A DNA stretch of 64,000 nucleotides from assembly GCA_041396705.1 (NCBI GenBank), contig JAWKYB010000003.1:28985-92984 (forward strand), read 5' to 3'. The notes below the pieces were generated by a model, which made no database searches, was not told the DNA's origin, and worked only from the letters and a program-made list of their open reading frames with translations. A program made the translations under genes and the position numbers. Source of the DNA: Alphaproteobacteria bacterium. Its GTDB lineage: Bacteria; Pseudomonadota; Alphaproteobacteria; CALKHQ01. Shown here piece by piece: positions 27,458 through 45,473 of the stretch; the first letter of the stretch is position 1; each line of letters begins with the position of its first letter.

Positions 27458-27539
27458 GGCGCCTCTCCCCCTCTGCGACTGCCGATCCTAGCCTGCCTCT
27501 TTTGTTGCCGTCGGATCAACTCGCAAGGCGTGGCGGGCG

Positions 27540-28352: not shown

Positions 28353-29145
28353 TGAAGGTGCCCGCGATCATGCGGTCGGTTACGGCCATGGTCGGGCTGT
28401 CGAAGTGCAGTCGGCCGCCCCGCAACGCCAGCACGCGGTCGGAAAAGGCGAGCGCGTGTTCGATGTCGTGGGTGGTGAACAGCAGCGTGATGCCGTGCGT
28501 CCGCGCCAGGGCCGCGAACAGGTCCATGACCTCGCGGCCGGCCGCCGGGTCGAGGCTCGCGGACGGCTCGTCGGCGATCAGCAGTCGCGGCTGGCGCACG
28601 ATCGCCCGAGCGATCGCCACGCGCTGCTGCTGTCCGCCGGACAGGGTGTCGGCCCGGTGACCCGCCCTGTCGGCAAGGCTGACCGCCTCCAGGGCCGCCA
28701 GCGCGTTGCGGCGCCACGCGTATGGCGCGGTCGTCTGGCAGAAGCCGCGCCAACTGCCCGGCGTGCCGAGCATGCCGTGCACGACGTTGGACAGCACCGA
28801 CCGCCGCCGGACCAGCCCGTGGTGCTGGAACACGAAGCCGGTCTGCCGGCGCAGGCGCGCACGCTGGGCGGATGTCGGCGTCGCGCCGAACCGTTCGCCC
28901 AGGGTCTCGACCGTGCCGCGGGAGATCGGCACCAGGCCGATCAGACATTTCAGCAGCGTCGACTTGCCGGACCCGTTCGGCCCGATCAGGGCGACACGTT
29001 CGCCTGCGCCGATGGTCAGGCAGACATCGCGCAGCACCGGCGCGACGCGCCCATAGGCCTTGTCGAGGTTTGCGGTGCTGACGATCGCGCGGTCCGTGGC
29101 GGTCGGGCCCGGTGCGGGCGGTTCCGCCGGCGTGGACAGGCGCAC
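28345..29145 (-). CDS. phnC: Phosphonate ABC transporter ATP-binding protein PhnC.
   Basis: Walker A GPNGSGKSTL, LSGGQQQRVAIARA and LLIADEPSASLDP are present. The start is a GTG at 29145 or 29157. Confidence 0.8.
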   Translation of the reverse strand: MRLSTPAEPPAPGPTATDRAIVSTANLDKAYGRVAPVLRDVCLTIGAGERVALIGPNGSGKSTLLKCLIGLVPISRGTVETLGERFGATPTSAQRARLRRQTGFVFQHHGLVRRRSVLSNVVHGMLGTPGSWRGFCQTTAPYAWRRNALAALEAVSLADRAGHRADTLSGGQQQRVAIARAIVRQPRLLIADEPSASLDPAAGREVMDLFAALARTHGITLLFTTHDIEHALAFSDRVLALRGGRLHFDSPTMAVTDRMIAGTFNG

Positions 29146-29171
29146 CTGCCTGCCCACGCCCGGGGGCGCGT

Positions 29172-30029
29172 TCAGTTGCCGACGAACGCGTCGAAGGTGT
29201 CGACGCCGATGGTGCGATACATCGCGCGGACATATTCGTAGTCGGCGTCGTCGATCGCGGTCAGGAAGAAGCCGCCCCGGTACTTGCCGTTGTCCTCGCC
29301 GGTCAGCACCGCCTGCATCAGGTCGGCGCCTTCGTTGACGAAGGCGTCGCGCACCGTGGCGACGATCGCCGCGTCCAGATCCGCCCGCGCGACCAGGATG
29401 TCGTTGGGCAGGTCGCGGCCGCGGGCGACCACGGTGAACGCCTGGTCGGGGAAGGCCTCGCGGATCGCGGCCAGGTGGGTGAAGTTCATGCCCACAGCGG
29501 CGACGTCGCCACGGATCATCGCCTCGACCGCGACGTTGCGGGCGATGATCTGGGCCTCGTAGTCGACGCCGTACATCAGGCCCAGGTCCGCCAGCGCCTG
29601 CGCCGGCCCGAGATGCTGCGAGGTGGAGCCGACGGAGCCGAAGGTGACGATCTGGCCGCGCAAGTCGGCGACATCCTTGATCGGGCCATCGGCCATCACC
29701 ACCACCTGGGCGAAATAGTCGGGCCGCTGCCAGCCGGCCACGATCTGCGCGTCGGTCAGCTGGCGGATGACGACATATTCGGCCGGGCCGGTCAGCACCA
29801 GATCGGCCTGGCCCGCGACCATCGCCTCGACCGCTGCCGTGCGCGAGTTGACGGGGTAGAGCTCGATGTCGAGGCCGGTCGCCTTTTCCAGGGCCAGTTC
29901 GAACGCGCCGAACTCCTGCTGCAGGACCTCCAGCCCCTCGATGTCGGTCACGGCGAAACTGACCGGCTCGGCCAGGGCCGGGGCGGCGAGCGCCGCCGTT
30001 GCGGCGGCGGCGAGAATGGCGCGGAACAT
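29172..30029 (-). CDS. phnD: Phosphonate ABC transporter substrate-binding protein PhnD.
   Basis: Signal MFRAILAAAATAALAAPALA and the PhnD-family fold. The RBS is GAGGGGAAG. Confidence 0.8.
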   Translation of the reverse strand: MFRAILAAAATAALAAPALAEPVSFAVTDIEGLEVLQQEFGAFELALEKATGLDIELYPVNSRTAAVEAMVAGQADLVLTGPAEYVVIRQLTDAQIVAGWQRPDYFAQVVVMADGPIKDVADLRGQIVTFGSVGSTSQHLGPAQALADLGLMYGVDYEAQIIARNVAVEAMIRGDVAAVGMNFTHLAAIREAFPDQAFTVVARGRDLPNDILVARADLDAAIVATVRDAFVNEGADLMQAVLTGEDNGKYRGGFFLTAIDDADYEYVRAMYRTIGVDTFDAFVGN

Positions 30030-30053
30030 GATGCTTCCCCTCTTCTGCGGCTT

Positions 30054-30061
30054 GTGTATAC
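30054..30061. promoter_or_regulatory. GTGTATAC, which matches the GntR/HutC-subfamily operator core GT-N-TA-N-AC, in the phnD / phnM divergent region.
   Basis: The site is palindromic. It lies 24 nt upstream of the phnD start codon and 85 nt upstream of phnM. Confidence 0.35.
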
Positions 30062-30146
30062 AGGAACCGTTGCGACCGCCCCTGCATAGCGGGATTCGGT
30101 GACAGCGGCGTGACGTTCCCCCAGGGACGGACGGCAGGAGCGGAAG

Positions 30147-31271
30147 GTGAACTGGATCCTCTCGGGAGGCCGGGTCCTGCGCGGAGACGCGCTGGAGCGC
30201 AGCGACCTCCATCTTTGCGACGGGCTGGTGGCCGAGCGGCCGGCCGCGGATGCGCGCCGGTTCGATGCCGGCGGCATGCTGGTCCTGCCTGGCATCGTCG
30301 ACATCCATGGCGACGGTTTCGAGCGCCAGATCATGCCGCGGCCCAAGGTCAGCTTCGACCTGGAGCTGGCGCTGGCCGAGACCGACCGGCAGCTGGTCGC
30401 CAACGGGATCACCACCGCCTTTCATGGCCTGACCGTGTCATGGGAGCCCGGCCTGCGGTGCCTGGACAACGCCCGGACCTTCGTGCCGACGCTGGAGCGG
30501 ATGCGGCCGGGGCTTGCCTGCGACACTCGCCTGCACCTGCGCTGGGAAACCTTCGCCCTCGATGCGATGGCCGATGTCGAAGGCTGGCTCGACCGCGAAC
30601 CGGCCCCGATCCTGGCCTTCAACGACCACACAACCAGCAGCGCGCAGAATGGCCGCCTGGCCAGCAAGCTCGGGCATTGGGCCGCGCGCGCCGGCGTCGG
30701 CGAGGCGGAGTATGTGGCGCTGGTCGACCGGGTCTGGAGCCGGCGCGACGAGGTACCGGCCGCCATCGAGCGGCTGGCAGGCGTGGCGCGCGATCATGGC
30801 GCGATCCTGCTGGCCCACGACGAGGCGACTCCCGACGACAGGCAGCGCTTCCGCGCGCTCGGCGCCCATGCCTCGGAGTTCCCGGTGACGGTCGAGACCG
30901 CGCGGGCGGCGCGAGCGGCCGGCGAGGACGTCATTCTCGGCGCGCCCAACGTGGTGCGCGGCGGCAGCCATACCGGTGCCTTGGATGCGACCGCGGCGGT
31001 GGCCGACGACCTGTGCTCGGTGCTCGCCTCCGACTACTACTATCCGACGCTGGCCGCCGCGGCGTTCAAGCTGGCCGCCGCCGGGCAGCTGCCGTTCCAC
31101 GCCGCCTGGGCGCTGGTCTCGGCCAACCCGGCGCGGGCGGCGGGCCTGCCAGATCGCGGCGCGCTGTCGGCGGGCATGCGCGGCGATGTCATCGTGGTCG
31201 ACGACGGCGGGGCGCAGCCGCGCGTGGTCGCCAGCTTCGTCGCCGGCCGCAAGGTCTATGAGGCCGGCTAG
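30147..31271 (+). CDS. phnM: PhnM, the C-P lyase pathway amidohydrolase (alpha-D-ribose 1-methylphosphonate 5-triphosphate diphosphatase).
   Basis: LPGIVDIHGDGFERQIMPRPKV and ILGAPNVVRGGSHTG...LASDYYYPTLAAAAFKLA align closely with E. coli PhnM. RBS: AGGAG, 6 nt, GTG. Confidence 0.85.
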   Translation: MNWILSGGRVLRGDALERSDLHLCDGLVAERPAADARRFDAGGMLVLPGIVDIHGDGFERQIMPRPKVSFDLELALAETDRQLVANGITTAFHGLTVSWEPGLRCLDNARTFVPTLERMRPGLACDTRLHLRWETFALDAMADVEGWLDREPAPILAFNDHTTSSAQNGRLASKLGHWAARAGVGEAEYVALVDRVWSRRDEVPAAIERLAGVARDHGAILLAHDEATPDDRQRFRALGAHASEFPVTVETARAARAAGEDVILGAPNVVRGGSHTGALDATAAVADDLCSVLASDYYYPTLAAAAFKLAAAGQLPFHAAWALVSANPARAAGLPDRGALSAGMRGDVIVVDDGGAQPRVVASFVAGRKVYEAG

Positions 31272-31272
31272 C

Positions 31273-32049
31273 GTGGATGGACCGGATCTGCTGGCGCGGC
31301 TGGCGCTCGCGGGCGGCCCCGCCTTCCGCCCGCGCGGCGAGCGGGCACTGTGGCTGCAGATCTACGACCTGTTGCGCCGGGAACTGACCAGCGGCCGGCT
31401 GCGCCCAGGATGCCAGCTGCCGGGCGAGAACCAGCTTGCCGAGGCCTTCGGCGTCACCCGGGTGACGCTGCGCCGGGCATTGCGGCGCTTGCAGCAGGAG
31501 GGCGTGCTGGTCGCGCGCAAGGGTGTCGGCGTGTTCCTGCGCAAGCCGCCGAGCGTCTATGTGGTCGCCAGCGACCGCCGTTTCGGCGACGCCCTGGTCG
31601 GCGATCACGGCACCGTCGACACGCGGACACTCGGCCTGCGCCGCCGCAAGGCCGGCCGCACGGCCGGCGAACGGCTGTGCCTGCCGGTGGGGGCGCCGAC
31701 CATCGCGCTTCGCCGGCTGCGCCTGCTCGACGGCCAGCCGGTCTACCTGACCGAGAAGCTGTTCCCGGCGGAGCGTTTCCCCGAGTTCGAGGCGTGCTAT
31801 CGCGAGCGCCAGTCGGTCGCCGCTGTTTATGCAGGCCACGGCATCGCCCGCTTCAGCCGGGTGGAGACACGGGTCAGCGGCGGCTTCGCCACGGCGGCCG
31901 AGGCCGAGGCGCTGGGCCTGACGCCGGCGACACCGGTGCTGCGGACCAGCGCGCTGAATGTCGACGAGGCCGGCATCCCCATCGAGTTCAGCAGCGGCTG
32001 CTGGCCGCTGACCATGGTCGAGCTGGTGTTCCGGCAGGGCACCGGCTGA
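31273..32049 (+). CDS. GntR/HutC-family regulator with a UTRA effector domain (PhnF-like).
   Basis: The N-terminal wHTH reads LAEAFGVTRVTLRRALRRLQQEGVLVARKGVGVFL. A C-terminal UTRA domain follows. The GTG start is 1 nt after the phnM stop. Confidence 0.75.
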   Translation: MDGPDLLARLALAGGPAFRPRGERALWLQIYDLLRRELTSGRLRPGCQLPGENQLAEAFGVTRVTLRRALRRLQQEGVLVARKGVGVFLRKPPSVYVVASDRRFGDALVGDHGTVDTRTLGLRRRKAGRTAGERLCLPVGAPTIALRRLRLLDGQPVYLTEKLFPAERFPEFEACYRERQSVAAVYAGHGIARFSRVETRVSGGFATAAEAEALGLTPATPVLRTSALNVDEAGIPIEFSSGCWPLTMVELVFRQGTG

Positions 32050-32128
32050 GCGCCGCGGCGGTGCCGCATTGACGCCGGGCCCGCCCTCCGCTTGCATCGC
32101 AGGGTGAATCGCACGGGGAGGGCGGATC

Positions 32129-33343
32129 ATGGGCGAATGGAGCGACCCGTTCGGGCGCTGGGGACTGCGGCGGGTGATCAACGCGTCGGGCACGATGACC
32201 GTGCTGGGCGCGTCGCGCGTGGCGCCGGAAGTGATCGAGAGCGTCGCCGGCATGCTGCCGCGCTTCGTGATCATGGACGAGCTGCAGGCGCGCGCCTCGC
32301 GCGTGATTGCGGAGGCGACCGGGGCCGAGGCGGGCTGCGTCGTCCATTGCACCGCCGCGGGAATCACCCTCGGCGTCGCCGCCGCCATCGCGGGCGACGA
32401 CCTGGCCGCCATCGAGGCGCTGCCGGACTGCGGCGGGCGCGAGCGCCGGGTCGCCGTCCAGATGGGCCACATGATCACCTACGGCGCCACCGTGCAGCAG
32501 GCGATCGCGCTGGCCGGAGCCGAGGTCGTGCCGGTGGGCAGCGCCGCCCTGTGCGAGGTCTATCACCTGCGCCGGGCGCTGGATGCCGGCTGCGCCGCCG
32601 CAGTGTACGTGATTTCCCACCACACCGTGCGCGAAGGCGAGCTGCCGCTCGACCTGTTCATCGAGACCTGCGCCGACTACGGCGTGCCGGTGATCGTCGA
32701 CATGGCGGCCGAATACGACATGCACCGCGCGGCGGCATTGGGCGCCGGCGTGGTCATCCACAGCGGCCACAAGTTCCTCGCCGGGCTGACCAGCGGCGTC
32801 GTCGCCGGCAAGCGCGACCTGGTGCGTGCGCTCTATCTGCAGCACCGCGGCATCGGCCGCACGATGAAGGTGCCGAAGGAGGCGATCGTCAGCGTGATGA
32901 CGGCACTGGAACTGTGGTCGAAGCGCGATGCCGCCAAGGCGCGCGCGGCCGAGGAGACGGTGCTGGCGCTGTGGGAAGGTTATCTTGCCGGCCTGGCCGG
33001 CATCGCCATTTCCCGTCACGACGACTGGACCGGCAACCCGGTGACGCGGCTGCGCCTGCACGTCGACGGGCCGGCGGCCGGGCTGCATGCTTGGGAGCTG
33101 GCCGGAAGGCTGGCGGCACGCGACCCCGCCATCGTGGTCCGCGACGACCTGGCCGAGCACGGCCTGCTGTTCCTCGATCCGTGCAACCTGGACCAGGGCG
33201 AGCCGGCAATGGTCGGCGACGCGATCCTGGAGGAAGTGCGCAAGGCGCGCGAGGCGGGCGACGGCTGTCGGATGAGCTGGAGCGACGTCAAGCGCCGCCG
33301 CGCGGTGGCGCCGCTCGACTGGCCCTATGACGGCGGCGGCTGA
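32129..33343 (+). CDS. SelA-like / DgaE-family PLP-dependent enzyme (fold type I).
   Basis: HSGHKFLAGLTSGVVAGKRDLV is the SelA-like PLP-Lys region. RBS: GGAGGG, 6 nt, ATG. Confidence 0.65.
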   Translation: MGEWSDPFGRWGLRRVINASGTMTVLGASRVAPEVIESVAGMLPRFVIMDELQARASRVIAEATGAEAGCVVHCTAAGITLGVAAAIAGDDLAAIEALPDCGGRERRVAVQMGHMITYGATVQQAIALAGAEVVPVGSAALCEVYHLRRALDAGCAAAVYVISHHTVREGELPLDLFIETCADYGVPVIVDMAAEYDMHRAAALGAGVVIHSGHKFLAGLTSGVVAGKRDLVRALYLQHRGIGRTMKVPKEAIVSVMTALELWSKRDAAKARAAEETVLALWEGYLAGLAGIAISRHDDWTGNPVTRLRLHVDGPAAGLHAWELAGRLAARDPAIVVRDDLAEHGLLFLDPCNLDQGEPAMVGDAILEEVRKAREAGDGCRMSWSDVKRRRAVAPLDWPYDGGG

Positions 33344-34456: not shown

Positions 34457-34671
34457 CGGCTCGCCCCGTCGCTCCGCGCAGCCGCCTGCCGCGCACGCGC
34501 CGACAGTAGCCCAGGCCGCCGCGGCCGTCATGCGGACCGGGTGGCTCGCGGCACCATATGCGGCTTCCGGGCACGAAGAGTTGAAGCCGCGTCGCGCGCC
34601 GATCGCTCGGCGCTGGCCGCGATTTGGCTATGCTGCGCGCTGGATGCTGCTTTTTGCAGAGGAGGGCGGTC

Positions 34672-35466
34672 ATGCGCTGGCGTTCGTTCCTCGGTCTGGG
34701 CCGTCTCGTGGTCGGGCTGGTATCGGCGGTCGTCCTCGGCGGCGGAGCCGCGGCCAAGTGCCTGCCGATCGCGGCAGCGCCGGGCGCCGCCCAGGTCGTC
34801 CCGGTCTCCGCGCCGGCCGACGGCGAAATCCGGCTCAGCTTCCTCGGCCATTCCAGCTTCCTGATCGAGACGGCCGGCGGCGCCAGCGCGGTCACCGACT
34901 ATTTCGGGCTGCCGCTGCCCTTTCCGCCCGATGTGGCGACGATGAACAACGCCCATTCGTCGCACTACACCGACTTCCCGGACCCGAAGATCGGGCAGGT
35001 ACTGCGCGGCTGGGCGACCGAGGCCGGGATTGCGTCCTACGACGTCACGGTGAAGGACCTGCGGGTCTGGAACGTGCCGACCAACGTGCGCGACTATGGC
35101 GGCACCCGTTTCAACGGCAATTCGATCTTCGTGTTCGAGGCCGACGGGATGTGCATCGCCCATCTCGGCCACCTGCACCACACGCTGACCGACCAGCATC
35201 TGGCCGACCTGGGTCAGATCGACGTGCTGCTGGTGCCGGCCGATGGCAGCTATACCATTTCGCACAGCCTGCTCGTCGAGGTGATCGAGCAGATCGGCCC
35301 GTCGATGATCGTGCCGATGCACTATTTCGGTGCGCTGACGCTGTCCGGCCTGCTCGGCCGATTGGAGGACGACGGCTACGCAATCGACCTGCGCAGCGAG
35401 AGCGCGATCACGGTCTCGCGCCTGACCATGCCGCACCGCACGGTGGTGGTGCTCGGCGACGGGTGA
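34672..35466 (+). CDS. Secreted MBL-fold metallo-hydrolase.
   Basis: RBS is GGAGGG, followed by a signal peptide. HLGHSSFLI...HSSHYTD...HLGH are metal-binding His clusters. Confidence 0.65.
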   Translation: MRWRSFLGLGRLVVGLVSAVVLGGGAAAKCLPIAAAPGAAQVVPVSAPADGEIRLSFLGHSSFLIETAGGASAVTDYFGLPLPFPPDVATMNNAHSSHYTDFPDPKIGQVLRGWATEAGIASYDVTVKDLRVWNVPTNVRDYGGTRFNGNSIFVFEADGMCIAHLGHLHHTLTDQHLADLGQIDVLLVPADGSYTISHSLLVEVIEQIGPSMIVPMHYFGALTLSGLLGRLEDDGYAIDLRSESAITVSRLTMPHRTVVVLGDG

Positions 35467-35495: not shown

Positions 35496-36722
35496 TCAGC
35501 CCTTCAGCAGCGCCTTCAGCTTGAATCCCGGGTCGCCCAGGGCGGCCGGGTCGGGCACCGCGCGGCGTTCGATCAGCATCTCTGCCAGCCTGATCTCGCG
35601 GCCGACCTTGCCGATCGCGCCGAGCGCGCTGGCGGCGACCAGCCGGCCGCCGGCCGCCAGGTGGAACAGCATGACGGCGCCGTCGCCGAGGTCGCGCGCG
35701 ACCGTCTCGGTGCCCGCGTCGACCAGGCCGGCGATCTGCAGGCACAGCTCGTACTGGTCGGACCAGAACCACGGCACCGCCGAGACCGGCTCTGCCGCGC
35801 CCAGCATGTTGCGGGCGGCCAGCGCTCCCTGGTCGTGGCTGTTGCGCCAGGCCTCCAGCCGGATGCGCCGGCCGTCGTACAACGGATGCGGGAACGAGCA
35901 GCAGTCGCCGGCGGCCAGGATGTGCGGATCCGCGGTCGCCAGCGTCGCGTCGACCCGGATGCCGTTCTCGACGGCCAGGCCCGCCGCCTCGGCCAGGTCG
36001 GTCCGCGGCACGGCGCCGACGCCGGCGATCGCCGCGTCGCATGGCACGACCGCGCCGTCGCCGAGCATCACGGCGTCGCTGCCGACCTCGGCGATCGTCA
36101 CGCCGGCGCGCAGGTCCACGCCCGCCGCACGGTGGCGTGCAGCCAGCATGTCGGCCAGCGTCTGCGGCACGCCGCGGGTCAGGATGCGCGGCGCGGCCTC
36201 CAGCAGCACCACCGCGGCGCCGCGGATGGCGGCGCTGGCCGCCAGCTCCAGCCCGATGAATCCCCCGCCGATCACCGCCACACGGGCGCCGGGCCGCAGC
36301 GCGGCGCGGATGGCACGCGAATCCTCGTGCCGGCGCAGATAGAGCACGCGGTCGGCGCCGGCACCGTGCAGCGGCAGGCGCCGGGCCTCGGCGCCGGTGG
36401 CCAGCAGCAGGCGGCGATAGCCGACGCCGGTGCCGTCGTCGAGCGCCACCCGCGCGGCGCCGCGGTCGATGGCGACGGCGCGGCGGCCGGCAAGGTGGAC
36501 GATGCCATGCTCGGCGCATTGCGCCTCGCTCAGCGCCAGCTTCGGTCCGGGATGCCCGTCGGCGGTGATCGCGTCCTTCGACAGCGGCGGCCGTTCGTAG
36601 GGAAGGTGCGCCTCTTCGCCGATCAGCGTGACCGGTCCGCGCCAGCCGGCTTCGCGTAGTGTCACGGCTGCGCGCGCGCCGGTCTCGCCGGCGCCGACGA
36701 TCACCATGCCGTCGTCGCTCAT
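35496..36722 (-). CDS. FAD/NAD(P)H ferredoxin reductase (oxygenase-coupled, putidaredoxin/rubredoxin-reductase type).
   Basis: MVIVGAGETGARAA binds FAD and VAVIGGGFIGLELAASA binds NAD. The C-terminal dimerisation domain is present. Confidence 0.85.
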   Translation of the reverse strand: MSDDGMVIVGAGETGARAAVTLREAGWRGPVTLIGEEAHLPYERPPLSKDAITADGHPGPKLALSEAQCAEHGIVHLAGRRAVAIDRGAARVALDDGTGVGYRRLLLATGAEARRLPLHGAGADRVLYLRRHEDSRAIRAALRPGARVAVIGGGFIGLELAASAAIRGAAVVLLEAAPRILTRGVPQTLADMLAARHRAAGVDLRAGVTIAEVGSDAVMLGDGAVVPCDAAIAGVGAVPRTDLAEAAGLAVENGIRVDATLATADPHILAAGDCCSFPHPLYDGRRIRLEAWRNSHDQGALAARNMLGAAEPVSAVPWFWSDQYELCLQIAGLVDAGTETVARDLGDGAVMLFHLAAGGRLVAASALGAIGKVGREIRLAEMLIERRAVPDPAALGDPGFKLKALLKG

Positions 36723-36735
36723 CGCGCCGCGCCGC

Positions 36736-37044
36736 CTAGATGTCGATATAGACGGTGCCGTCCTCGACCTTGGTCGGATAGGTCTTCAGGTCGATGCAGA
36801 CGGGCGCGCCCTTGGCCTGGCCGGTCATGTAGTTGAAGCGGCCGTTGTGCTTCGGACATTCGATGATCTCGTCCATGACCAGACCGTCGGCCAGATGCAC
36901 CTTCTCGTGCGTGCACAGGCCATCGGTGGCGAAATAGCGGTCATCCGGCGACCGGTAGACCGCGAAGGTGCGGCCGCCATGGTCGAAACGGATCACGTCT
37001 TCCTCGTCGATCTCGTCTGCGGCGCAGACCTCGACCCAGCTCAT
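36736..37044 (-). CDS. Rieske [2Fe-2S] ferredoxin, 102 aa.
   Basis: CTHEKVHL...CPKHNGRF is the Rieske CxH...CxxH motif. RBS: GGAGA, 6 nt, ATG. Confidence 0.85.
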   Translation of the reverse strand: MSWVEVCAADEIDEEDVIRFDHGGRTFAVYRSPDDRYFATDGLCTHEKVHLADGLVMDEIIECPKHNGRFNYMTGQAKGAPVCIDLKTYPTKVEDGTVYIDI

Positions 37045-37124
37045 CGGCATTCTCCAGGGCGATTGCAGGCAAACGACCGCGCGGCGGATGCGCCGCGCGG
37101 CCGCGGTCAGGGTATTCCTTTTGC

Positions 37125-38195
37125 CTATTCGGCCGGAACCAGTCCAGCGTCGTCCTTGCCCCCCGGCGGGGCCGGCGGCAGCTTGCGGTCGACCCACCAG
37201 TCCGGATTGCGGTGCTGGCGGATCAGTGCCGGGAAGATCTCCCGATAGGCCGCCAGGGTGCTGGGATAGGGCGGCGGGCAGTCGGCCTTGATCTCCTCGT
37301 GCAGCGCCGGCAGGGCGTGGAACGGCACCATCGGGAACATGTGGTGCTCGATGTGGTAGTTCATGTTCGAATAGAGATAGCGGAACACCGGGTTCATGTA
37401 GACCGTGCGGGTGTTCAGCCGGTGGTCGAGCACGTCGTCGGCCAGCCCGATATGCTGGGTCATGCCGAAGAACAGCACCAGCCAGTGGCCGTAGAACTGC
37501 GGCAGCAGGAACATCACGATCGGCAGCAGCGACCACGCGATCAGCGCCCAGGCGATGATTGCCGCCCAGATCGCGATCCACACCCGCGCGGTCCAGAACA
37601 TCCGGTTCCAGTCGGACTCGGGAATGAAATCGCGCTCGTGGTCGCTTACCTTGCCGGCGGCGTGGGCGAACACGCGCATGATGGTCTGGGTGCCGCCCTT
37701 CAGATTGAAGATGGTCAGCACCAGGCCGAGAAAGTCGGGCGGGCGCGGGGTGATGATCTCCGGGTCGCGGCCGACAATGATGGTGTCGGTGTGGTGGCGC
37801 ACATGGCTCCAGCGCCAGACATCGGGCTCGCGGTACAGGAAGAAGCAGGCGAACTGGTAGACGACGTCGTTCAGCCAGTTGGTCTTGAAGCAGGTGCGGT
37901 GGCCGCACTCGTGCCAGCGCGAATCGGCCGAACCGGTGATCAGCGTGCCGTAGACCGGCAGCGTCAGCAGCAGCCACCAGGTGCCCCAGGACCAGACCAC
38001 CAGCGCGCCGGCGGCGAAGACCAGCGCGAACCACAGCCCCTGCCACCACAGGCCCGGCCAATCGCTGCGCTGCATCAGCTCCTTCATCCGCTTGCGCGGT
38101 ACGTCGCATTTGTACCAGTCGGCCGAGACCAGGCCGCGCTCGAAAGCGCGCACCGTCTCGGCACCGTTCAGGCTGTAGTCGCGTCGCACGGTCAT
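37125..38195 (-). CDS. Membrane fatty-acid-desaturase-family di-iron hydroxylase/desaturase.
   Basis: Three His boxes HECGH, HVRHH and HIEHH, with multiple TM segments. RBS: GGGGAGAG, 6 nt, ATG. Confidence 0.8.
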   Translation of the reverse strand: MTVRRDYSLNGAETVRAFERGLVSADWYKCDVPRKRMKELMQRSDWPGLWWQGLWFALVFAAGALVVWSWGTWWLLLTLPVYGTLITGSADSRWHECGHRTCFKTNWLNDVVYQFACFFLYREPDVWRWSHVRHHTDTIIVGRDPEIITPRPPDFLGLVLTIFNLKGGTQTIMRVFAHAAGKVSDHERDFIPESDWNRMFWTARVWIAIWAAIIAWALIAWSLLPIVMFLLPQFYGHWLVLFFGMTQHIGLADDVLDHRLNTRTVYMNPVFRYLYSNMNYHIEHHMFPMVPFHALPALHEEIKADCPPPYPSTLAAYREIFPALIRQHRNPDWWVDRKLPPAPPGGKDDAGLVPAE

Positions 38196-38352
38196 CGCGC
38201 ACTCTCCCCAGCGTGCGCCTGCCTTCGGCAGGGTCGTCTGTCTAAGTAATAGGCGAAGCCGCCCGCGCAATCAATGCGGCGATGACGGAACCCATCAAAT
38301 CAATCAGCTCTTGACGGCAGGAACCATCAAAAACCATCAGACCGGGCCGGCG

Positions 38353-39300
38353 TCACGCATCGTTGGCGCTGCGCCTGCGCTTGTGGGCGACGAGGGCCAT
38401 CAACTCGCGGTCGCGCCAGCGCGTGCGCGCGGCGATGCGGTCGCGCGGCAGGCTGGCGCTGCGCTCCGCCGCGATCCGTTCGGCCAGGGCGGGGCCCCAG
38501 TCGGGCCGGCGCTGCTGCGACGGCCACAGCCGGACATAGATGTCCTGGTAGCGCTCGACGTAGTCGGTCACGCCGCCGGGGGCGTTCAGGTCGATGGTCT
38601 CGAACGGGCCCATGAAGGCCCAGCGCAGGCCGAGGCCGTCGCGGATCCCGACATCGACGTCCTCGGCGCTGGCATAGCCGTCGTCGACCAGCCGGAATGC
38701 CTCCTGCAGCAACGCGCCCTGCATCCGGTTCATGATGAAGCCGGCGAGTTCCTTCTTCATCACGATCGGCACCTGGCCGATGGCGCGCATCAGGGCCGCG
38801 GTGCGCGCGACCGTCTCCTGCGCGGTCCAGGGCGCGGGCACCACCTCGACCGCCGGCACCAGATAGGGCGGGTTGATCGGGTGGGCGACCACGCAGCGCG
38901 CACCGCCGGACAACCCCTCGGAAAAGGCCGAGGGCAGGATCGCCGAGGTCGAGCTGGCCAGCACCGTCTCCGGCGCCGCCAGCGCGTCGAGTTGCTGCCA
39001 CAGCGGCCGCTTGACCTCCAGCCGCTCCGGGGCGTTCTCCTGCACGTGGTCCGCACCGTCCAGCGCGTCCTCCAGGCTGGCGGCGACGGCGATGCGCTGC
39101 ATCACCTGCGCTTCGGTCTGGCCGTCGAGCAGGTCGGCCGCGGCGAGGTCGGCCAGCATGGCCGGGATCAGCGCCCGCGAGGCCGCGGCGGCGCCGTCGA
39201 CCGGGTCGTACATCGAAACCGCGCAGCCGCCGCGGGCGAAGCTGATCGCCCATGCCCGCCCGATCAGGCCGGCCCCGACCAGTCCGATTTTCTGCACCAT
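38353..39300 (-). CDS. 3-hydroxyacyl-CoA dehydrogenase family protein (L-carnitine dehydrogenase-like).
   Basis: MVQKIGLVGAGLIGRAWAISFA is a Rossmann motif. The 3HCDH C-terminal domain is present. Confidence 0.75.
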   Translation of the reverse strand: MVQKIGLVGAGLIGRAWAISFARGGCAVSMYDPVDGAAAASRALIPAMLADLAAADLLDGQTEAQVMQRIAVAASLEDALDGADHVQENAPERLEVKRPLWQQLDALAAPETVLASSTSAILPSAFSEGLSGGARCVVAHPINPPYLVPAVEVVPAPWTAQETVARTAALMRAIGQVPIVMKKELAGFIMNRMQGALLQEAFRLVDDGYASAEDVDVGIRDGLGLRWAFMGPFETIDLNAPGGVTDYVERYQDIYVRLWPSQQRRPDWGPALAERIAAERSASLPRDRIAARTRWRDRELMALVAHKRRRSANDA

Positions 39301-39371
39301 GCACCTCCGCCAAGGGTCTAGATTTGCGGCGCCTCGCCGTCGCCGCGCACCATGCACCGGGCCCCGTTGCC

Positions 39372-39989
39372 ATGACCAGAGCCTCGACCGCACCCACCGC
39401 CCAGCGCCTGGCCGCCGCCGCGACCGACGCGATCCGGCGTGCCGACTGGCCCAAGGCGGAGGCGACGTTGCGCCGCCTGGTCAAGCTGCGCGATGCGCCG
39501 GCGGAGGCGTCCTACAACCTGGCCCAGGTCCTGCTGCGCGCCGGCAAGCCGGAGCAGGCCGGCAGCTGGCTGCGGCGGGCGGTATCGCTGCGCGCCGACT
39601 ACGGTATCGCCTGGTTCGAACTCGGCCGGTGGCTGGTGGAACAGGGCGAGCCGGCCGAGGCGCGCGACTGCTTTGCCAGGGCCACGGTGCTGCTGCCCGA
39701 GGATACCGATGGCTGGCGCAACCTGGCGCGGCTGGCGGAGCGGCTGGGCGATCCCGCCCAGGCCCGCGACGCCTGGCGCCGGATCGCCGGCGCCGGCTTC
39801 GCCGAGGCCAGGGTCGGCCTGATGCGTGCGCTGCTGGAGCTGCGCGACCCCGAAGGCGAGGTCCTGCGCCGCGCGCTGTGGCGCGAGCCGGCGCTGCGGC
39901 CGCTGGTTCTGCGCGCGGTCACCCGGTCCACCGCCGGCCGCATCGCGCTGGCGGCAGATGGGCCGTCGGCTCAGTCGCCGGAGCGATAG
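39372..39989 (+). CDS. Tetratricopeptide-repeat protein.
   Basis: Three or four TPR units are present (AEASYNLAQVLLRAGKPEQA.., ADYGIAWFELGRWLVEQGEPAEA..). Confidence 0.55.
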   Translation: MTRASTAPTAQRLAAAATDAIRRADWPKAEATLRRLVKLRDAPAEASYNLAQVLLRAGKPEQAGSWLRRAVSLRADYGIAWFELGRWLVEQGEPAEARDCFARATVLLPEDTDGWRNLARLAERLGDPAQARDAWRRIAGAGFAEARVGLMRALLELRDPEGEVLRRALWREPALRPLVLRAVTRSTAGRIALAADGPSAQSPER

Positions 39990-40678
39990 TCTTTGCGATA
40001 GACCCCGCGCTCGTCCTGCAGCCGTTGCTGCAGTTCGCGGGTGGCGGCCTGGTGCGCGGCGTCCATCGTCTCGACCGTCAGAGCGATGCGGTCGCGCGGC
40101 AGCGGGATCGCCTGCGCCACCGGCGTGCCGGCCGGGATGGTGCCGACGAAGGCGGGATCGGTCCACAGCGCCGGAAAATGGACGTAGCCATCGGCGTAGC
40201 TGTCGCAGTCGACCAGGCCGGTCAGCGTGTGGAACGGCGTCGTCGGCCGGCCGAACGGGTGGGTGAACAGCACCGACCAGCCCGGCGGCGCCTGCAGGGT
40301 CCAGAAGTTCATGAACTTGACCACGAAGCGCCCGGTGATGGCGAGCGGCGCGCCGCTGGCCTGTTCCGGCGCGTGCACGCCGATCGGCGCCCGACTGGTC
40401 AGCTGGTCCGGCAGCGCCGGCGGATTCCAGTCCCAGGCGATCTCGCCGTCGGCGACGTGCAGGTCGCATGCGAGCGGCATCAGCAGGCCGAGCCCGAGGG
40501 CGTCGACCAGCGGCGGGCAGTGCTTCAGCGTGCGCATAGGGATGCCGCCCAGGCTGTCGGCCGGCACCTCCGCCGGCATGTCGCGCAGCCAGTCCGGCCG
40601 GGCCTCGCGCGCCGGCACCGGCCGCGGCAGGATCGGCTGCAGCGCCGGGTGGCAACGGGCCGTCAGCGCCACGCTCAC
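39971..40678 (-). CDS. Hypothetical protein, 235 aa, last gene of the ABC operon.
   Basis: The ORF lies 4 nt after the permease stop. It overlaps the convergent TPR gene by 19 nt. The start codon is uncertain. Confidence 0.4.
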   Translation of the reverse strand: MSVALTARCHPALQPILPRPVPAREARPDWLRDMPAEVPADSLGGIPMRTLKHCPPLVDALGLGLLMPLACDLHVADGEIAWDWNPPALPDQLTSRAPIGVHAPEQASGAPLAITGRFVVKFMNFWTLQAPPGWSVLFTHPFGRPTTPFHTLTGLVDCDSYADGYVHFPALWTDPAFVGTIPAGTPVAQAIPLPRDRIALTVETMDAAHQAATRELQQRLQDERGVYRKDYRSGD

Positions 40679-40682
40679 GCGC

Positions 40683-41543
40683 TCAGCCCGTCTTGCGCGC
40701 GGCCTCGCGCCGCAATGCGAGGGTGTGGGTCACCGCGGCGGCGACAGTCAGCACCACGATGATGGCGCCGATCGCGTTGATCACCGGCGGGTGGCCGTTC
40801 GGGTTGCGCACCATCGCCCCGATCTCGGTGGAGAAGGTGCAGGCGCCGCCCTTGGCGAACATGGTGGTGTTGTAGTTCTCGAACGACGACATGAAGGCGA
40901 TCACCGCGGCGCTGGCCAGCGCCGGCAGCAGATAGGGCAGGGTGATGCGCCGGAACACCCGCCAGGGCGAGGCGCCGAGGTCGAGCGCCGCTTCCTCGTG
41001 CTCCGGCGGCTGGCGCTGCAGGCGGGCCATCACCACCAGCATCGGATAGCCGGCAATGAAGGTGGTCTGGGCGATGATCACCGTGGTCAGCCCGGCGCTG
41101 ACGCCCATGCCGTTCCACAGGATCATGGTCGACAGCCCGAGCACGATGCCCGGCGCCAGCATCGGCGACAGCAGCACCCACCACAGGAAGCTGTTGAAGC
41201 GGGTCTGCCAGCGGGTCAGCATCACCGCGCCCGCCAGCCCCAGCACCAGCGACAGCGGCACGACGAAGGCGGCGACGATCATCGAGTTGCCGAAGCAGTC
41301 GTACAGCCGGGGCCGGTCCAGGCTGCGCAGCACCGGGTCGGCGCGGAGCCCGGTCTCGTCCATCCACAGGAAGGCGTACCACTTGCCGGTCAGGCCCTGC
41401 CAGTCGGTGACGCTGGGCGGCGAGACGTCGTTGAACGAGGCGACGATCAGCAGCAGCAGCGGCAGGAACATGAACAGCAGGAACAGCCAGGTGTAGCCGC
41501 GCAGCAGGCGCGCGCTGAACCGATGCGTCGCGGCGGCGCTCAT
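40683..41543 (-). CDS. ABC transporter permease (PotC/PotI-like).
   Basis: TM protein with EEAALDLGASPWRVFRRITLP, an EAA motif. The ATG overlaps the upstream stop as ATGA. Confidence 0.8.
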   Translation of the reverse strand: MSAAATHRFSARLLRGYTWLFLLFMFLPLLLLIVASFNDVSPPSVTDWQGLTGKWYAFLWMDETGLRADPVLRSLDRPRLYDCFGNSMIVAAFVVPLSLVLGLAGAVMLTRWQTRFNSFLWWVLLSPMLAPGIVLGLSTMILWNGMGVSAGLTTVIIAQTTFIAGYPMLVVMARLQRQPPEHEEAALDLGASPWRVFRRITLPYLLPALASAAVIAFMSSFENYNTTMFAKGGACTFSTEIGAMVRNPNGHPPVINAIGAIIVVLTVAAAVTHTLALRREAARKTG

Positions 41544-42934
41544 GCCCGCACGAAGTCCTTCAGCCGCGCGCGCACCGCCCACATGAACACGCCGACAATG
41601 GCGAAGCAGATGAACATGTAGGCGAAGGCGTAGGCCGAGCCGAGGTTGCTGTTCTGCGATTCGAAGAACTTGTTGTAGATGGTCTGGCTGAACCATTCGC
41701 CCTGCAGGCCGCGCGAGATGATGCGCGGCACCGAGAAGGCGCCCGCCGACAGCATGAAGGTGGCGATGCAGCCGACCGCGATGCCCGGCTTGGCGTGCGG
41801 GACGATGATGCGGCGGTGGATGCGCCAGGTGCTGGCGCCGAGGTCGTGGGCCGCCTCGATCTGGTTGCGGTCCAGCGTCGCCATCACGTTGTACAGCGGG
41901 AACACCATGAACAGGATGTAGGTGTAGACGATCACCACGAAGACGGTGATCGGGCTGCGCTTGAACGCGATCGCCTCGTCGGCGGCGAGGTCGAGCACGC
42001 CGAGCCAGTCGAGGATCTGGTTGAACACGCCGTTGGCGTCGATCAGCGCCACCCAGGCGTAGATCCGCATCAGCTCGACCGTCGCATAGGGGATGATCAG
42101 CGCCAGGAACAGCCAGACGGCGCGCTGCGGCGTGGCCACCAGCGCCAGGTTGTAGGCGATCGGATAGCAGGCGATGAGCGCGAGCCCGGTGGCGAGCACC
42201 GCGAACAGGATCGTGCGCATCAGGGTGGTCAGCGTGATCCGCTCATAGACCGTGCCGTCGCGCTCGAACCGCAGGCCGATCCATTCCTGCAGCTGGCTGC
42301 CGAACTCGGCATCGGCGCGGGCCTTGGCCTCCTCGGTCAGCGGGATCGCCCGCGGCTCGAAGATGAAGGCGAAGTTGGCCAGACCGTGCGAGCTTGCCGA
42401 GGCTTCCGCCTGCAGCAGTTGCGCGCGCAGCGCCTCGGCGGCGTCCTGCACCGCCTGCGCCTGGGCGAGTTGGGTTTCGAGGTCGGCGCTGCCGTCGACC
42501 GCCAGGGTCGCGATGCCGTATTCGAGATCGAGCCAGGCCTGCTCGCCCTCGTCGCGGGCCAGCATCTGGTGGGTGGTGGCGCGGTCGCACTGGATGATGT
42601 AGGGCAGGCCGCTGCCGCCGGGGCTGGGCGCGGCCATGATCGAAGGCGACGGCGACGGCGAGGGGGACGGCGTGATCGAGGGGATCGCCAGCCCGCCGCC
42701 GTCCTGGTCTGCGCCCGTATCGTCGCGATAGGATTCGAGGACGGTGCGACAGGTGTGCGCATCCTGCCCGACGGCGTAGGCGATGGAGGAGTCGAGCTGG
42801 CGCAGCGGCGTGCGCAGGGCGCTGTCCAGCATGCTGACCTGCGGCAGGATGATCAGCAGTACGCCCCACAGCGCGGTCACCGAGACGAACAGTGCCGTCA
42901 GGCCGTGGCCGTAGGCCTGGATCAGCCTACGCAT
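41540..42934 (-). CDS. ABC transporter permease (PotB/PotH-like) with an insertion of about 200 aa between TM1 and TM2.
   Basis: The EAA motif is IEAAHDLGASTWRIHRRIIVP. The insertion contains PSPSPSPSPS and coiled-coil-like Ala/Gln-rich segments. Confidence 0.75.
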   Translation of the reverse strand: MRRLIQAYGHGLTALFVSVTALWGVLLIILPQVSMLDSALRTPLRQLDSSIAYAVGQDAHTCRTVLESYRDDTGADQDGGGLAIPSITPSPSPSPSPSIMAAPSPGGSGLPYIIQCDRATTHQMLARDEGEQAWLDLEYGIATLAVDGSADLETQLAQAQAVQDAAEALRAQLLQAEASASSHGLANFAFIFEPRAIPLTEEAKARADAEFGSQLQEWIGLRFERDGTVYERITLTTLMRTILFAVLATGLALIACYPIAYNLALVATPQRAVWLFLALIIPYATVELMRIYAWVALIDANGVFNQILDWLGVLDLAADEAIAFKRSPITVFVVIVYTYILFMVFPLYNVMATLDRNQIEAAHDLGASTWRIHRRIIVPHAKPGIAVGCIATFMLSAGAFSVPRIISRGLQGEWFSQTIYNKFFESQNSNLGSAYAFAYMFICFAIVGVFMWAVRARLKDFVRA

Positions 42935-44048
42935 TCTCGGCCATGTCGCGGCCGGTGGCGGCCAGGGCGCCGGCGGGCAGCACGATCGCGTCCTCGCAGG
43001 CGAAGCCGATGCGCTGCGGGCCGGCCATGTCGCGCCCGGCGTTGCCGGTATTGGTCAGGTGCATCGTCACCTCGCGCTGCCCGGCGCGTAGCAGCACGTT
43101 GACGAACGGACCCTCCAGGTCGCGACGCTCGACCGCGGCATCGAGCTCGTTGCCGTAGCGATCGCCCGGCTGCTGCGCGGCGAGGCCGACATGTTCGGGC
43201 CGCACGAACACCATCGCCTCGGCGCCGACCGGCAGGTTGCCCGGATTGCGGCCGAGGAACCGGCCGAGCGGGGTCTCGACATAGGCCATGCCGTCTTCCA
43301 GCGCGGCGACGCTGCCCGGAAACACGTTGGTCTCGCCGACGAAGCTGGCGACGAAGGCGGTGGCCGGGTTGCCATAGACCTCGTCCGCCGGACCGACCTG
43401 CTCGATCACGCCCTCGCGCATCACCGCGACGCGGTCCGACATGGTCAGGGCCTCGCCCTGGTCGTGGGTGATGTAGATGAAGGTGACGCCGGTCTTGCGC
43501 TGGATCGCGCGCAGCTCCGCCCGCATGTGCTGGCGCAGCTTGAGGTCCAGCGCCGACAGCGGCTCGTCCAGCAGCAGCACCGACGGCTCGACCGCCAGCG
43601 CCCGCGCGATCGCCACCCGCTGGCGCTGGCCGCCGGACAGCTCGGTCGGCTTCTTCTCGCCCTGACCGGTCAGCGCGACCAGGTCGAGCAGTTCCATCGC
43701 CCGCTTGCGGCGGGAACGCCGGTCGACGCCGCGCGCTTCCAAACCGAAGGCGACGTTCTCCCACACCGTCATCAGCGGGAACAGCGCGAGGTTCTGGAAG
43801 ATCAGCGCCGTCGGCCGCGCGTTCGGGCCGGAGCGGCCCATGTCGACGCCGCCGATCAGGATGCGGCCTGCCGACGGCTGCACGAAACCGGAGACGGCGC
43901 GAAGGATGGTGGTCTTGCCGCAGCCGGAGGGGCCGAGGATCGAGAAGAACTCGCCCGCCTCGATGGTCAGCGAGGTCGGCTGGACCGCCGTGAAGCCGTT
44001 GGGATAGGTGATCCGGAGCTGGTCCAGGACCACGTCCTTGCCGTGCAT
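42927..44048 (-). CDS. ABC transporter ATP-binding protein (PotA-like, with a C-terminal TOBE/MOP-like domain).
   Basis: GPSGCGKTT, LSGGQRQRVAIARA and LLLDEPLSALD are present. Confidence 0.85.
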   Translation of the reverse strand: MHGKDVVLDQLRITYPNGFTAVQPTSLTIEAGEFFSILGPSGCGKTTILRAVSGFVQPSAGRILIGGVDMGRSGPNARPTALIFQNLALFPLMTVWENVAFGLEARGVDRRSRRKRAMELLDLVALTGQGEKKPTELSGGQRQRVAIARALAVEPSVLLLDEPLSALDLKLRQHMRAELRAIQRKTGVTFIYITHDQGEALTMSDRVAVMREGVIEQVGPADEVYGNPATAFVASFVGETNVFPGSVAALEDGMAYVETPLGRFLGRNPGNLPVGAEAMVFVRPEHVGLAAQQPGDRYGNELDAAVERRDLEGPFVNVLLRAGQREVTMHLTNTGNAGRDMAGPQRIGFACEDAIVLPAGALAATGRDMAENA

Positions 44049-44124
44049 GGCCGCTGCACTCGTGGCGCGGGCGCAGGCGGGCCGGCCGCGGGCGACGTGC
44101 CCGGCGGCCGGCCCGCAGCGGCCG

Positions 44125-45255
44125 TCAGGCGTTGGTGATGATCTCGACGAACTCGTCGCGCACCGGCGCGAAGAAAGCCGTGTCGGCCTGCCACCACCAC
44201 ATGTTGTTCAGCACCTCGGCGGTGTAGGTCTCGTTGAACTGGCGCTTGAACTCGTCGGAGGCGAAATCGGCGGCGCCGGCCACGGCGGAGTTGTAGCCGG
44301 TGTTGTTGGAGAACATGCCGCCGATCTCCGGCTTCAGCACGAAGTTGATGAAGGCGTAGGCCTGGTCGGCGTTGGCGACCCCCGACGGGATGCCGATCGA
44401 ATCGAGCCAGGTGATGATGCCGTCCTTCGGCGCCCGGTAGACGAAGTTCGGGTCCTCGCGGTTCAGCAGCAGCCCGGTGGTGTCCCAGGTCTGGCCGATG
44501 ACGCAGCCCGCGTCCTTGAACGCGCCGGTCGCCTCGGTGGCGTTGTTCCAGAAGGCGCCGAAATTCGCCTTGTGCTCGATGATGAACTGGGTGACCGCGC
44601 CCCAGACCCGGCGCGCATCGTCCTCGGACTTGTAGACGTCGAGCATGCGGTTCGACGGCACCTCGCCGGTGGCGTCGAGATAGAGGCCGGTGCCCATGAT
44701 CGCGGATTTCTGGCGGAACGCCGCCGCGCCCTCGGCCTCCGACCGCCACAGGTCGCCGAACGACAGGTCCGCGTCGCTGATGTTCAGCGCGCCGCGGTTC
44801 AGGGTGATGCCCTCGGTGCCCCAGTCGAACGGGATCAGATAGCGCTTGCCGTTATAGGTGGCGCCGAGCTGCACGGAATCGCGCAGGAACGACGGAATCA
44901 CCGAGTCGAGATTGGCCTTCGCCTCGTCGATCGGTGCCAGCCAGATGCCGTCCGGTGCGTTCGGGTCCTCATAGCCGGCCCGGTTGGTGATCGAGGGCAT
45001 GATGACGTCGAAGCCCTTGCCGCCGTTGGCGCGCAGGGTCGATTCCGCCTCGTCGTTGGAGCCATAGGTGGTCAGGTTCAGGGTGATGCCGGTCTCGGCC
45101 TCGAACGCCTCGGCGATGTTGGGCTGGACGTAGTCCTGCCAGGCGAAGACGTTGACGGAGCCCGACGTGGCGAGCGCGTCATGGGCGCGCAGGACGGCGG
45201 GTGCAGCGACGGCCGCGGCCGCGCCCTTGAGGACGGAACGGCGTGAAATGGGCAT
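44125..45255 (-). CDS. Periplasmic substrate-binding protein (PotD/PotF family) with a Tat signal.
   Basis: MPISRRSVLKGAAAAVAAPAV is the Tat signal. RBS: AGGGAG, 6 nt, ATG. Confidence 0.8.
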   Translation of the reverse strand: MPISRRSVLKGAAAAVAAPAVLRAHDALATSGSVNVFAWQDYVQPNIAEAFEAETGITLNLTTYGSNDEAESTLRANGGKGFDVIMPSITNRAGYEDPNAPDGIWLAPIDEAKANLDSVIPSFLRDSVQLGATYNGKRYLIPFDWGTEGITLNRGALNISDADLSFGDLWRSEAEGAAAFRQKSAIMGTGLYLDATGEVPSNRMLDVYKSEDDARRVWGAVTQFIIEHKANFGAFWNNATEATGAFKDAGCVIGQTWDTTGLLLNREDPNFVYRAPKDGIITWLDSIGIPSGVANADQAYAFINFVLKPEIGGMFSNNTGYNSAVAGAADFASDEFKRQFNETYTAEVLNNMWWWQADTAFFAPVRDEFVEIITNA

Positions 45256-45473
45256 CGGAAACTCCCTGTGCATTGCTTGCGGTCTTCTTGGGCATCTACC
45301 AGCGTCGCATGCCACCCCGATTACGGTTCGATGACGGTCTTGTGACACTCCGGAATCGCGACCGAATCGGGCGCTCTGGCGCCATTCTGGTGACATGGCT
45401 GACGGCTAGAGACGCTACGGTAGCGCCGCACGATGCGGCGGGCGAGTCGAAAAAGCGCGGCGAGGGAACGGCG

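Follow-up and report, generated by a model that had tools for sequence, protein, structure and literature searches.

How does a membrane-bound histidine-box di-iron enzyme come to be encoded beside a Rieske ferredoxin and a ferredoxin reductase, and what would such a set of proteins do? The question is raised by three adjoining genes in a stretch of 64,000 nucleotides (contig JAWKYB010000003.1; hereafter the window, meaning the whole 64 kb) from the metagenome-assembled genome of an uncultured alphaproteobacterium. An earlier note on this DNA had taken the combination to be an uncommon electron-transfer wiring for a membrane hydroxylase or desaturase. As we discuss below, the Rieske-to-membrane-di-iron wiring is genuine but not new, and is of the already-known and widespread MocDEF kind. 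The three genes as a whole are best explained as a MocDEF-type three-component membrane monooxygenase, a reading to which we give a probability of about 0.75. That they encode a MocDEF-type electron-transfer system is, taken by itself, very probable.

The triad fills 35496-38195 exactly, with the reductase stop codon at one end and the ATG of the desaturase-like gene at the other, and all three genes lie on the minus strand:

37125..38195, minus strand: MocD-like integral-membrane di-iron oxygenase of the FA_desaturase family, 356 amino acids, the presumed terminal oxygenase
36736..37047, minus strand: MocE-family Rieske [2Fe-2S] ferredoxin, 103 amino acids, with an alternative ATG at 37053
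35496..36722, minus strand: MocF-like NAD(P)H:ferredoxin reductase (flavin adenine dinucleotide, FAD; glutathione-reductase fold), 408 amino acids

The GC content of the window is about 70%, and every real gene is therefore overlapped by long spurious open reading frames (ORFs). A third-position GC content of 0.91-0.92 and the frame plot favor the three triad frames over the overlapping ones. The genes are co-directional and tightly spaced, with 77 nt between the MocD-like and MocE genes and 13 nt between the MocE and MocF-like genes, and the D-E-F order is matched in relatives (loci L001, L002, L003, and L084 of the comparison described below). Shine-Dalgarno-like sequences precede the MocD-like and MocE genes, that of MocE being GGAGA, 6 nt before the ATG at 37047.

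The MocD-like protein matches Pfam FA_desaturase (PF00487) with an E of 2.7e-39 and 135.9 bits, against a cut-off of 29.7, and carries three His boxes, HECGH at residue 95, HVRHH at 131 and HIEHH at 281. The eight box histidines are invariant among 26 homologs, as are H248, H293, and H299. The AlphaFold2 model (pLDDT 80.8, pTM 0.80) has four transmembrane helices; each of two long hydrophobic blocks in the sequence forms a transmembrane helical hairpin in it. The ferredoxin matches Pfam Rieske (E 1.1e-19), with the ligand motifs CTH at residue 45 and CPKH at residue 64, and passes the NCBIfam model TIGR02377, "MocE family 2Fe-2S type ferredoxin," at 182.7 bits against a curated cut-off of 136.15. 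The reductase consists of Pyr_redox_2 (E 7.1e-62) and Reductase_C (E 8.6e-21), with GxGxxG dinucleotide-binding motifs at residues 10 and 152. Taken together, these profile and motif matches are strong indications of family rather than chance. The earlier note had read these components from the letters of the DNA, and here it holds up well: the His boxes, the Rieske ferredoxin and the reductase are all present with profiles and motifs in agreement, the hydroxylase is a membrane His-box di-iron enzyme, and its partners in the adjoining genes are a Rieske ferredoxin and a ferredoxin reductase of the glutathione-reductase type.

A triad of this composition is known from rhizopine catabolism. The moc genes were found in Sinorhizobium meliloti L5-30 and Rhizobium leguminosarum, and homologs in S. 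meliloti 1021 include SM_b20818 ("hydrocarbon oxygenase mocD"), SM_b20819 (ferredoxin mocE), and SM_b20820 (ferredoxin reductase mocF), which adjoin a LacI-family regulator gene (PMC11387232). mocDEF is one of four rhizopine-catabolism transcription units and has its own rhizopine-inducible promoter (PMC10107442). The genetic description is that of Bahar et al. (1998), as it is cited in four later papers (PMC10107442, PMC5132102, PMC11387232, PMC13434037); in the passages of two of these that refer to it, the products are an oxygenase system by which 3-O-methyl-scyllo-inosamine is demethylated (PMC13434037, PMC5132102). A protein search of annotated plasmids with the window MocD-like protein as query returned 287 records, mostly from Rhizobium and Sinorhizobium, at about 50-54% identity over 94-99% of the query length. 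Three records were inspected (S. meliloti pSymB, Phyllobacterium zundukense Tri-48, and Acidiphilium multivorum pACMV1), and in all three the MocD-like gene is followed by one for a "MocE family 2Fe-2S type ferredoxin" and then one for an "FAD-dependent oxidoreductase." The window proteins are 50, 80, and 57% identical to D, E, and F of S. meliloti pSymB, and to those of the Phyllobacterium moc locus, which is complete, the values are 52% (339 amino acids, gap-free), 83%, and 56% (405 amino acids). The Phyllobacterium locus has MocR-type, sugar-binding-protein and Gfo/Idh/MocA genes as neighbors, and UniProt Q92VY9, "MocD," and a "putative hydrocarbon oxygenase MocD" are in the same 90% cluster as the pSymB protein.

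How widespread is the wiring? A scan for MocD-like relatives, with one genome per species, gave at least 593 genomes, drawn from Alpha-, Beta-, and Gammaproteobacteria, Acidobacteria, Verrucomicrobia, Paenibacillus, Cohnella, and Solirubrobacterales. The best 80 loci were compared, counting over those with room for the genes in question (77 for MocE, 74 for MocE and MocF together). In 62/77 the very next gene downstream of the MocD-like one is MocE-like, and the search for the whole triad in other genomes that the earlier note had proposed finds MocE-like and then MocF-like genes in 29/74. The suggestion that the wiring is uncommon is thus not borne out, given the number of species, the frequency of the MocD-MocE adjacency and a triad known since 1998. 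Its novelty falls with it, since the triad belongs to a family that is well described genetically, though not biochemically.

The partner that varies is the reductase. An FNR-type reductase (FAD_binding_6 and NAD_binding_1, about 270-290 amino acids) follows the MocE-like gene in place of MocF at an acidobacterial and a verrucomicrobial locus:

L043 (acidobacterial), 11378-12250: FNR-type reductase in place of MocF
L049 (verrucomicrobial), 4603-5421: FNR-type reductase in place of MocF

At other loci without MocF, an unrelated enzyme is sometimes encoded next after the MocE-like protein. Judged from gene order, the reductase class is interchangeable and the MocD-Rieske pair is the conserved core, because MocF is sometimes replaced by another reductase class or by an unrelated enzyme. 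Five further loci (L055, L058, L071, L079, and L083) probably also have an FNR-type reductase after the MocE-like gene.

Nature has also joined these proteins covalently. Of 1.84 billion cluster representatives, searched exhaustively, 313 matched at E <= 1e-30. Ten unusually long ones were tested; seven of them consist of FA_desaturase with a C-terminal Rieske domain (456-498 amino acids), and one 760-residue representative carries FA_desaturase, Rieske and FNR-type reductase domains in operon order. The fusion representatives are P0169, P0170, P0173, P0181, P0182, P0193, P0196, and P0225. They are real and old rather than artefacts of gene calling, because they are mutually 28-59% identical and have Pro/Ala-rich linkers. 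The fusions look like self-sufficient forms of the system, and, biochemistry apart, no other evidence available speaks as strongly for the Rieske protein as the direct donor to the membrane enzyme.

In a neighbor-joining tree of MocD-like proteins, built without support values, the window protein groups with those of L087 (80% identity) and L084 (74%), at a clear distance from the clade of rhizobial MocD. Between the window and L084 the triads share 74, 86, and 73% identity for D, E, and F, which argues that the triad moved as one unit and apparently took its promoter region along. L084 has the full triad in the company of genes for LacI, a CUT2 ATP-binding cassette (ABC) transporter, PhyH, Gfo/Idh/MocA, AP_endonuc_2, and DeoC, and at L087 a CUT2 ABC transporter precedes the MocD-like gene. 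The next-closest clade (L004, L005, and L086; 66-69%) has "orphan" MocD-like genes with no adjoining Rieske ferredoxin. At L086 a PhyH-family dioxygenase and an Rv2258c-like methyltransferase are encoded before the MocD-like protein and an EamA transporter after it; the window has an Rv2258c-like methyltransferase gene at 59052..60119, 21 kb from the triad.

The company kept by the relatives bears on the substrate. Among 61 fully flanked loci, LacI is found at 35, a CUT2 sugar-binding protein at 33, Gfo/Idh/MocA at 32, a PanB-like protein at 11, AP_endonuc_2 at 10, and PurU at 3. Directly after the triad stands a gene of the PanB-like (3-methyl-2-oxobutanoate hydroxymethyltransferase) family in 13/80 loci or one for PurU (formyl-tetrahydrofolate deformylase) in 5/80; such loci include L001, L002, L022, L026, L032, L046, L054, L072, and L074, and both genes occur in S. 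meliloti pSymB and Phyllobacterium. Their presence suggests folate-linked handling of a one-carbon unit from demethylation, and it agrees with a release of formaldehyde.

Expression of the triad would be controlled from the spacer upstream of the MocD-like gene, which is 157 nt long and of lower GC content. The following elements are proposed in it:

38246..38297, minus strand: probable promoter/operator of the triad
38297..38283, minus strand: operator-like near-palindrome TGATGGGTTCCGTCA, with 3 mismatches to the consensus
38274..38269, minus strand: -35-like TTGATT, 17 nt from the -10-like element
38251..38246, minus strand: -10-like TATTAC, part of TTGATT-N17-TATTAC

In L084, L087, and S. 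meliloti the regions upstream of the MocD-like gene can be aligned with the spacer, and the offset of 23 nt from palindrome to TTGAT in the window is identical in L084, L085, and L087. At loci with a divergent LacI-family gene, the MocD-like gene is preceded, at a distance of about 100-150 nt, by a palindrome of consensus TGATAGAAACTATC(A/T) (L028, L032, L046-L048, L050, L054, L057, L065, L067, L068, L070, L072-L075, L078, L081, L084, and L085). LacI-mocD gene pairs have been reported (Sullivan et al., 2013; PMC3538637). The TGATAGAAACTATC(A/T) palindrome is a candidate operator, of which the window would keep a degenerate, TGATAGAAACTATCA-like copy with no LacI gene nearby. We infer that the triad forms a single transcription unit with its own promoter/operator.

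Within the unit, the spacer between the MocD-like and MocE genes holds one more structure:

37073..37104, minus strand: GC-rich 14-bp hairpin with no U-tract, not flagged by the terminator scan

The RNA of 37124..37048 folds at -35 kcal/mol (z -2.45 versus shuffles). The corresponding spacers of L084 and L087 also have GC hairpins, which are not significant versus shuffles. It is probable that the hairpin is no terminator but an RNA structure within the operon.

How might the system work? In the scheme that follows, the course of the electrons, the O-demethylase chemistry, the kind of substrate, the promoter and the repressor are what we infer. The MocF-like FAD reductase would accept electrons from NAD(P)H and hand them on singly to the Rieske [2Fe-2S] ferredoxin, a small soluble protein. 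The ferredoxin would then dock on the cytoplasmic face of the MocD-like enzyme, which would activate O2 and hydroxylate its substrate. If the enzyme attacks an O-methyl group on a methylated cyclitol or sugar-like compound that is small and polar, the hemiacetal so formed would give formaldehyde and the free alcohol, for a net O-demethylation. Transcription would start from the promoter/operator in the 157-nt spacer, probably under the control of a LacI-type repressor whose gene lies elsewhere in the genome. The rhizobial analogy, the sugar/cyclitol surroundings in which the closest relatives are found, and the PanB-like and PurU genes at some loci favor O-demethylation of a methylated cyclitol or sugar; we put the chances that it is the actual reaction at about even.

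Several observations weigh against reading the locus as a MocDEF-type monooxygenase, or limit how far that reading can be carried. No in vitro reconstitution or structure of MocDEF enzymes was found in the open-access literature searched, which also gave nothing relevant on biochemical characterization, on a pinitol demethylase or on systems that pair a desaturase with a Rieske ferredoxin. The demethylase role of MocDEF rests on the genetics of the 1998 study, as reported in the papers that cite it. The window MocD-like protein is 50-52% identical to rhizobial MocD and belongs to a separate clade, and the identity of the substrate is therefore non-transferable. When the 64-kb window was searched for partners by tblastn with proteins of L002, L003, and L084, none of LacI, CUT2 binding protein, Gfo/Idh/MocA, AP_endonuc_2, PanB, and PurU was found, and the genes that flank the triad differ from those at all 80 sampled loci. 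A generic sigma-70 scan of the spacer gave no promoter site at its threshold, only two weak terminator-like hairpins having been reported by the generic scan; the promoter is proposed because the spacer aligns with those of the relatives.

The unusual flanks give rise to one alternative. They are as follows:

39300..38353, minus strand: PRK06129-family 3-hydroxyacyl-CoA dehydrogenase (466 bits against a cut-off of 347), 157 nt upstream of the triad and co-directional with it
39252..39989, plus strand, probable start 39372: TPR-repeat gene, visible through its codon-position GC pattern only
39971..40678, minus strand: 235-residue protein with good coding statistics and no Pfam or NCBIfam match, last gene of the importer operon
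45396..40683, minus strand: PotD/PotA/PotB/PotC-type ABC importer, spanning 45396..39971 with the 235-residue gene
34624..35466, convergent with the triad and downstream of it: MBL-fold gene, with bicupin and DgaE-like pyridoxal phosphate (PLP) enzyme genes next

On this alternative a MocDEF-type module has been freed from cyclitol catabolism and recruited beside the PRK06129-type dehydrogenase for a new two-step route on a non-cyclitol small molecule, in which the triad hydroxylates or demethylates and the dehydrogenase oxidizes the hydroxyl group; the PotABCD-type transporter may import the substrate. The position and direction of the dehydrogenase gene favor such a coupling, as do a Pot-type importer on the same strand and the lack in the window of the usual cyclitol partners. 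Against it, the adjacency recurs in 0/80 loci and in none of the close relatives, and relatives of the dehydrogenase on plasmids adjoin SDR and BKACE genes, not MocDEF. Moreover, the 157-nt spacer between dehydrogenase and triad holds the triad's own conserved promoter/operator-like region, and between the ABC operon and the dehydrogenase stands the divergent TPR gene, which shares 19 nt with the end of the minus-strand gene upstream. Because the TPR gene is on the opposite strand, there is no single long leftward operon from the ABC genes through the dehydrogenase. We regard the coupled route as very improbable; if true, it would be an undescribed catabolic route and add a new substrate class for MocD-type enzymes. 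As conserved partners of the triad, the dehydrogenase, 235-residue, TPR, MBL-fold, bicupin, DgaE-like and PotD-like genes were all rejected (0/80 loci).

The superfamily of the MocD-like protein suggests two more alternatives, both of them very improbable in our view. In one of them the protein would modify lipids, as a desaturase of the acyl-lipid or acyl-CoA type or as a hydroxylase of lipids, and would happen to take its electrons from a Rieske ferredoxin. The Pfam family points that way, and the HX3H / HX2HH / HX2HH pattern and four-helix topology are those of membrane desaturases; there is also a weak match to the NCBIfam model of the DesB Delta(10) desaturase (E 1.3e-9). That match reaches only 37.8 bits against a cut-off of 500, and across the NCBIfam desaturase, carotene-hydroxylase and GntB models the scores fall far under every cut-off, the best though weak one being that to GntB (E 3.5e-11, 43 bits against 380, C-terminal third only). 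The nearest homologs and the subfamily as a whole, furthermore, stand in sugar/cyclitol catabolic clusters with LacI and ABC importers rather than among genes of lipid synthesis, and the named members of the family are rhizopine catabolism genes. Membership among the lipid desaturases was therefore rejected, with no curated desaturase equivalog model passed.

The other alternative is an AlkB/XylM-like hydroxylase of hydrocarbons (alkane, xylene, or cymene) whose electron carrier has been exchanged. The superfamily is shared, and Foldseek with the MocD-like model gave only three meaningful matches, all distant superfamily members: desaturase-like subunits of chloroplast Ycf2/Orf2971-FtsHi complexes, and AlkB (8f6t). 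Rubredoxin reductase shares its fold class with the triad's type of reductase, which also speaks for this alternative. So do the old annotation "hydrocarbon oxygenase MocD" and the likening of mocDEF to XylMA in the literature (PMC5132102, PMC13434037). The AlkB match, however, has a TM-score of 0.50, 15% identity and an E of 0.055, and sequence and profile searches of all PDB chains gave zero matches to the MocD-like protein, AlkB included. With these searches empty and the fold matches distant, a substrate could not be inferred from structure. The neighborhood lacks alcohol or aldehyde dehydrogenase and aromatic-pathway genes, and the relatives are linked to sugar-type ABC transporters and LacI regulators. 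Membership in the AlkB/XylM group was rejected on the Rieske carrier, four rather than six transmembrane helices and the low structural similarity to AlkB. The MocD-like protein sits in a MocD subfamily of its own, neither of the AlkB/XylM type nor a recognized lipid desaturase.

It is hardly credible that the adjacency to the His-box gene is incidental and that the client of the ferredoxin and reductase is another oxygenase, with its gene elsewhere: the two do resemble HcaC/HcaD and AndAb/AndAa of ring-hydroxylating dioxygenases, but with scores below the curated cut-offs (AndAb, the next best ferredoxin model, 82.7 bits under 150; reductase against HcaD and AndAa, below their equivalog cut-offs, 341 versus 450) while the MocE model is passed, the MocD-MocE adjacency recurs across phyla, covalent MocD-Rieske and MocD-Rieske-reductase fusions exist, and no Rieske oxygenase alpha subunit is encoded in the window, where the sole CxH...CxxH motif in six frames is that of the ferredoxin itself.

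Elsewhere in the window, a phosphonate-type cluster on mixed strands (26615..33343) lies a few kilobases to the left of the triad, with no evident link to it; it encodes a PhnE-like permease, an ABC ATPase, a phosphonate-binding protein, a PhnM-family amidohydrolase and a DgaE-family PLP ammonia-lyase. An open frame at 2..4942 (plus strand) runs off the left edge of the window and encodes at least 1,646 amino acids with no Pfam family. With its abundance of Gly, Ala, Val, Ile, Thr, Asp, and Asn, the product resembles a large secreted or surface protein of the beta-helical kind, and its region has a lower GC content (0.66-0.67) and a strong positive AT skew. The short ORF at 48355..48726 (plus strand) matches the C-terminal part only of the GMC oxidoreductase family (profile positions 50-139) and may be a fragment or pseudogene; a full-length GMC oxidoreductase is encoded at 56920..58617.

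The MocDEF-type reading has a practical side for annotation. Members of the MocD-like family are deposited as "fatty acid desaturase family protein." Where genes for a MocE-family Rieske ferredoxin and a ferredoxin reductase come after a desaturase-family gene, a MocDEF-type oxygenase is the proper reading, rather than a lipid desaturase, an alkane hydroxylase or redox wiring of a new kind. The MocD family itself, with its broad spread and its natural two- and three-domain fusions, is of more interest than the window locus. If its members are general O-demethylases of plant methyl-inositols such as pinitol, as genomic context would allow one to suppose, they carry out a widespread and little-noticed step of carbon turnover in soil.

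How does the triad compare with systems that are better known? The AlkB-AlkG-AlkT system has the same layout, in which electrons pass from NAD(P)H through a flavoprotein of the glutathione-reductase fold and then a small carrier, of the iron-sulfur or iron type, before they reach a His-box di-iron oxygenase in the membrane. The two oxygenases share the FA_desaturase superfamily, AlkB being detectable as a structural neighbor. They differ in the carrier, which is rubredoxin for AlkB and a Rieske [2Fe-2S] protein in the window, and in the number of transmembrane helices (six in AlkB, four in the window enzyme); the gene contexts of the window enzyme's relatives suggest polar sugar/cyclitol substrates, not alkanes. 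XylM/XylA and CymAa/CymAb are also alike in having membrane His-box hydroxylases, which attack a methyl group. XylA-type partners are single proteins in which a plant-type ferredoxin is fused to an FNR-type reductase, whereas the window has a separate Rieske ferredoxin and a reductase of the glutathione-reductase type (Pyr_redox_2). The contrast that the earlier note drew with both AlkB and XylM was correct. The electron-transfer pair has its nearest matches outside MocE in HcaC/HcaD and AndAb/AndAa, which have equal folds and sizes; the sub-threshold scores set it apart, as does a client that is a membrane di-iron enzyme. GntB, the L-arginine gamma-hydroxylase of the guanitoxin pathway, is a precedent for a membrane enzyme of the FA_desaturase superfamily that hydroxylates a small hydrophilic molecule, although the window protein is no member of that group (43 bits versus 380).

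The closest likeness is to the moc system itself. Three protein families are shared in matching order and orientation, with 50-52% (D), 80-83% (E), and 56-57% (F) identity over full length, and the promoter/operator-like architecture upstream is similar. The window differs from a moc locus proper in that its 64 kb contain no mocA/B/C/R, LacI, sugar-ABC or inositol-type genes, its MocD-like protein belongs to another clade than rhizobial MocD, and the host is known from a metagenome. The substrate of the window triad is not necessarily rhizopine. In its "orphan" context the triad resembles the mocDEF-only clusters of Pseudomonas syringae (PMC5132102).

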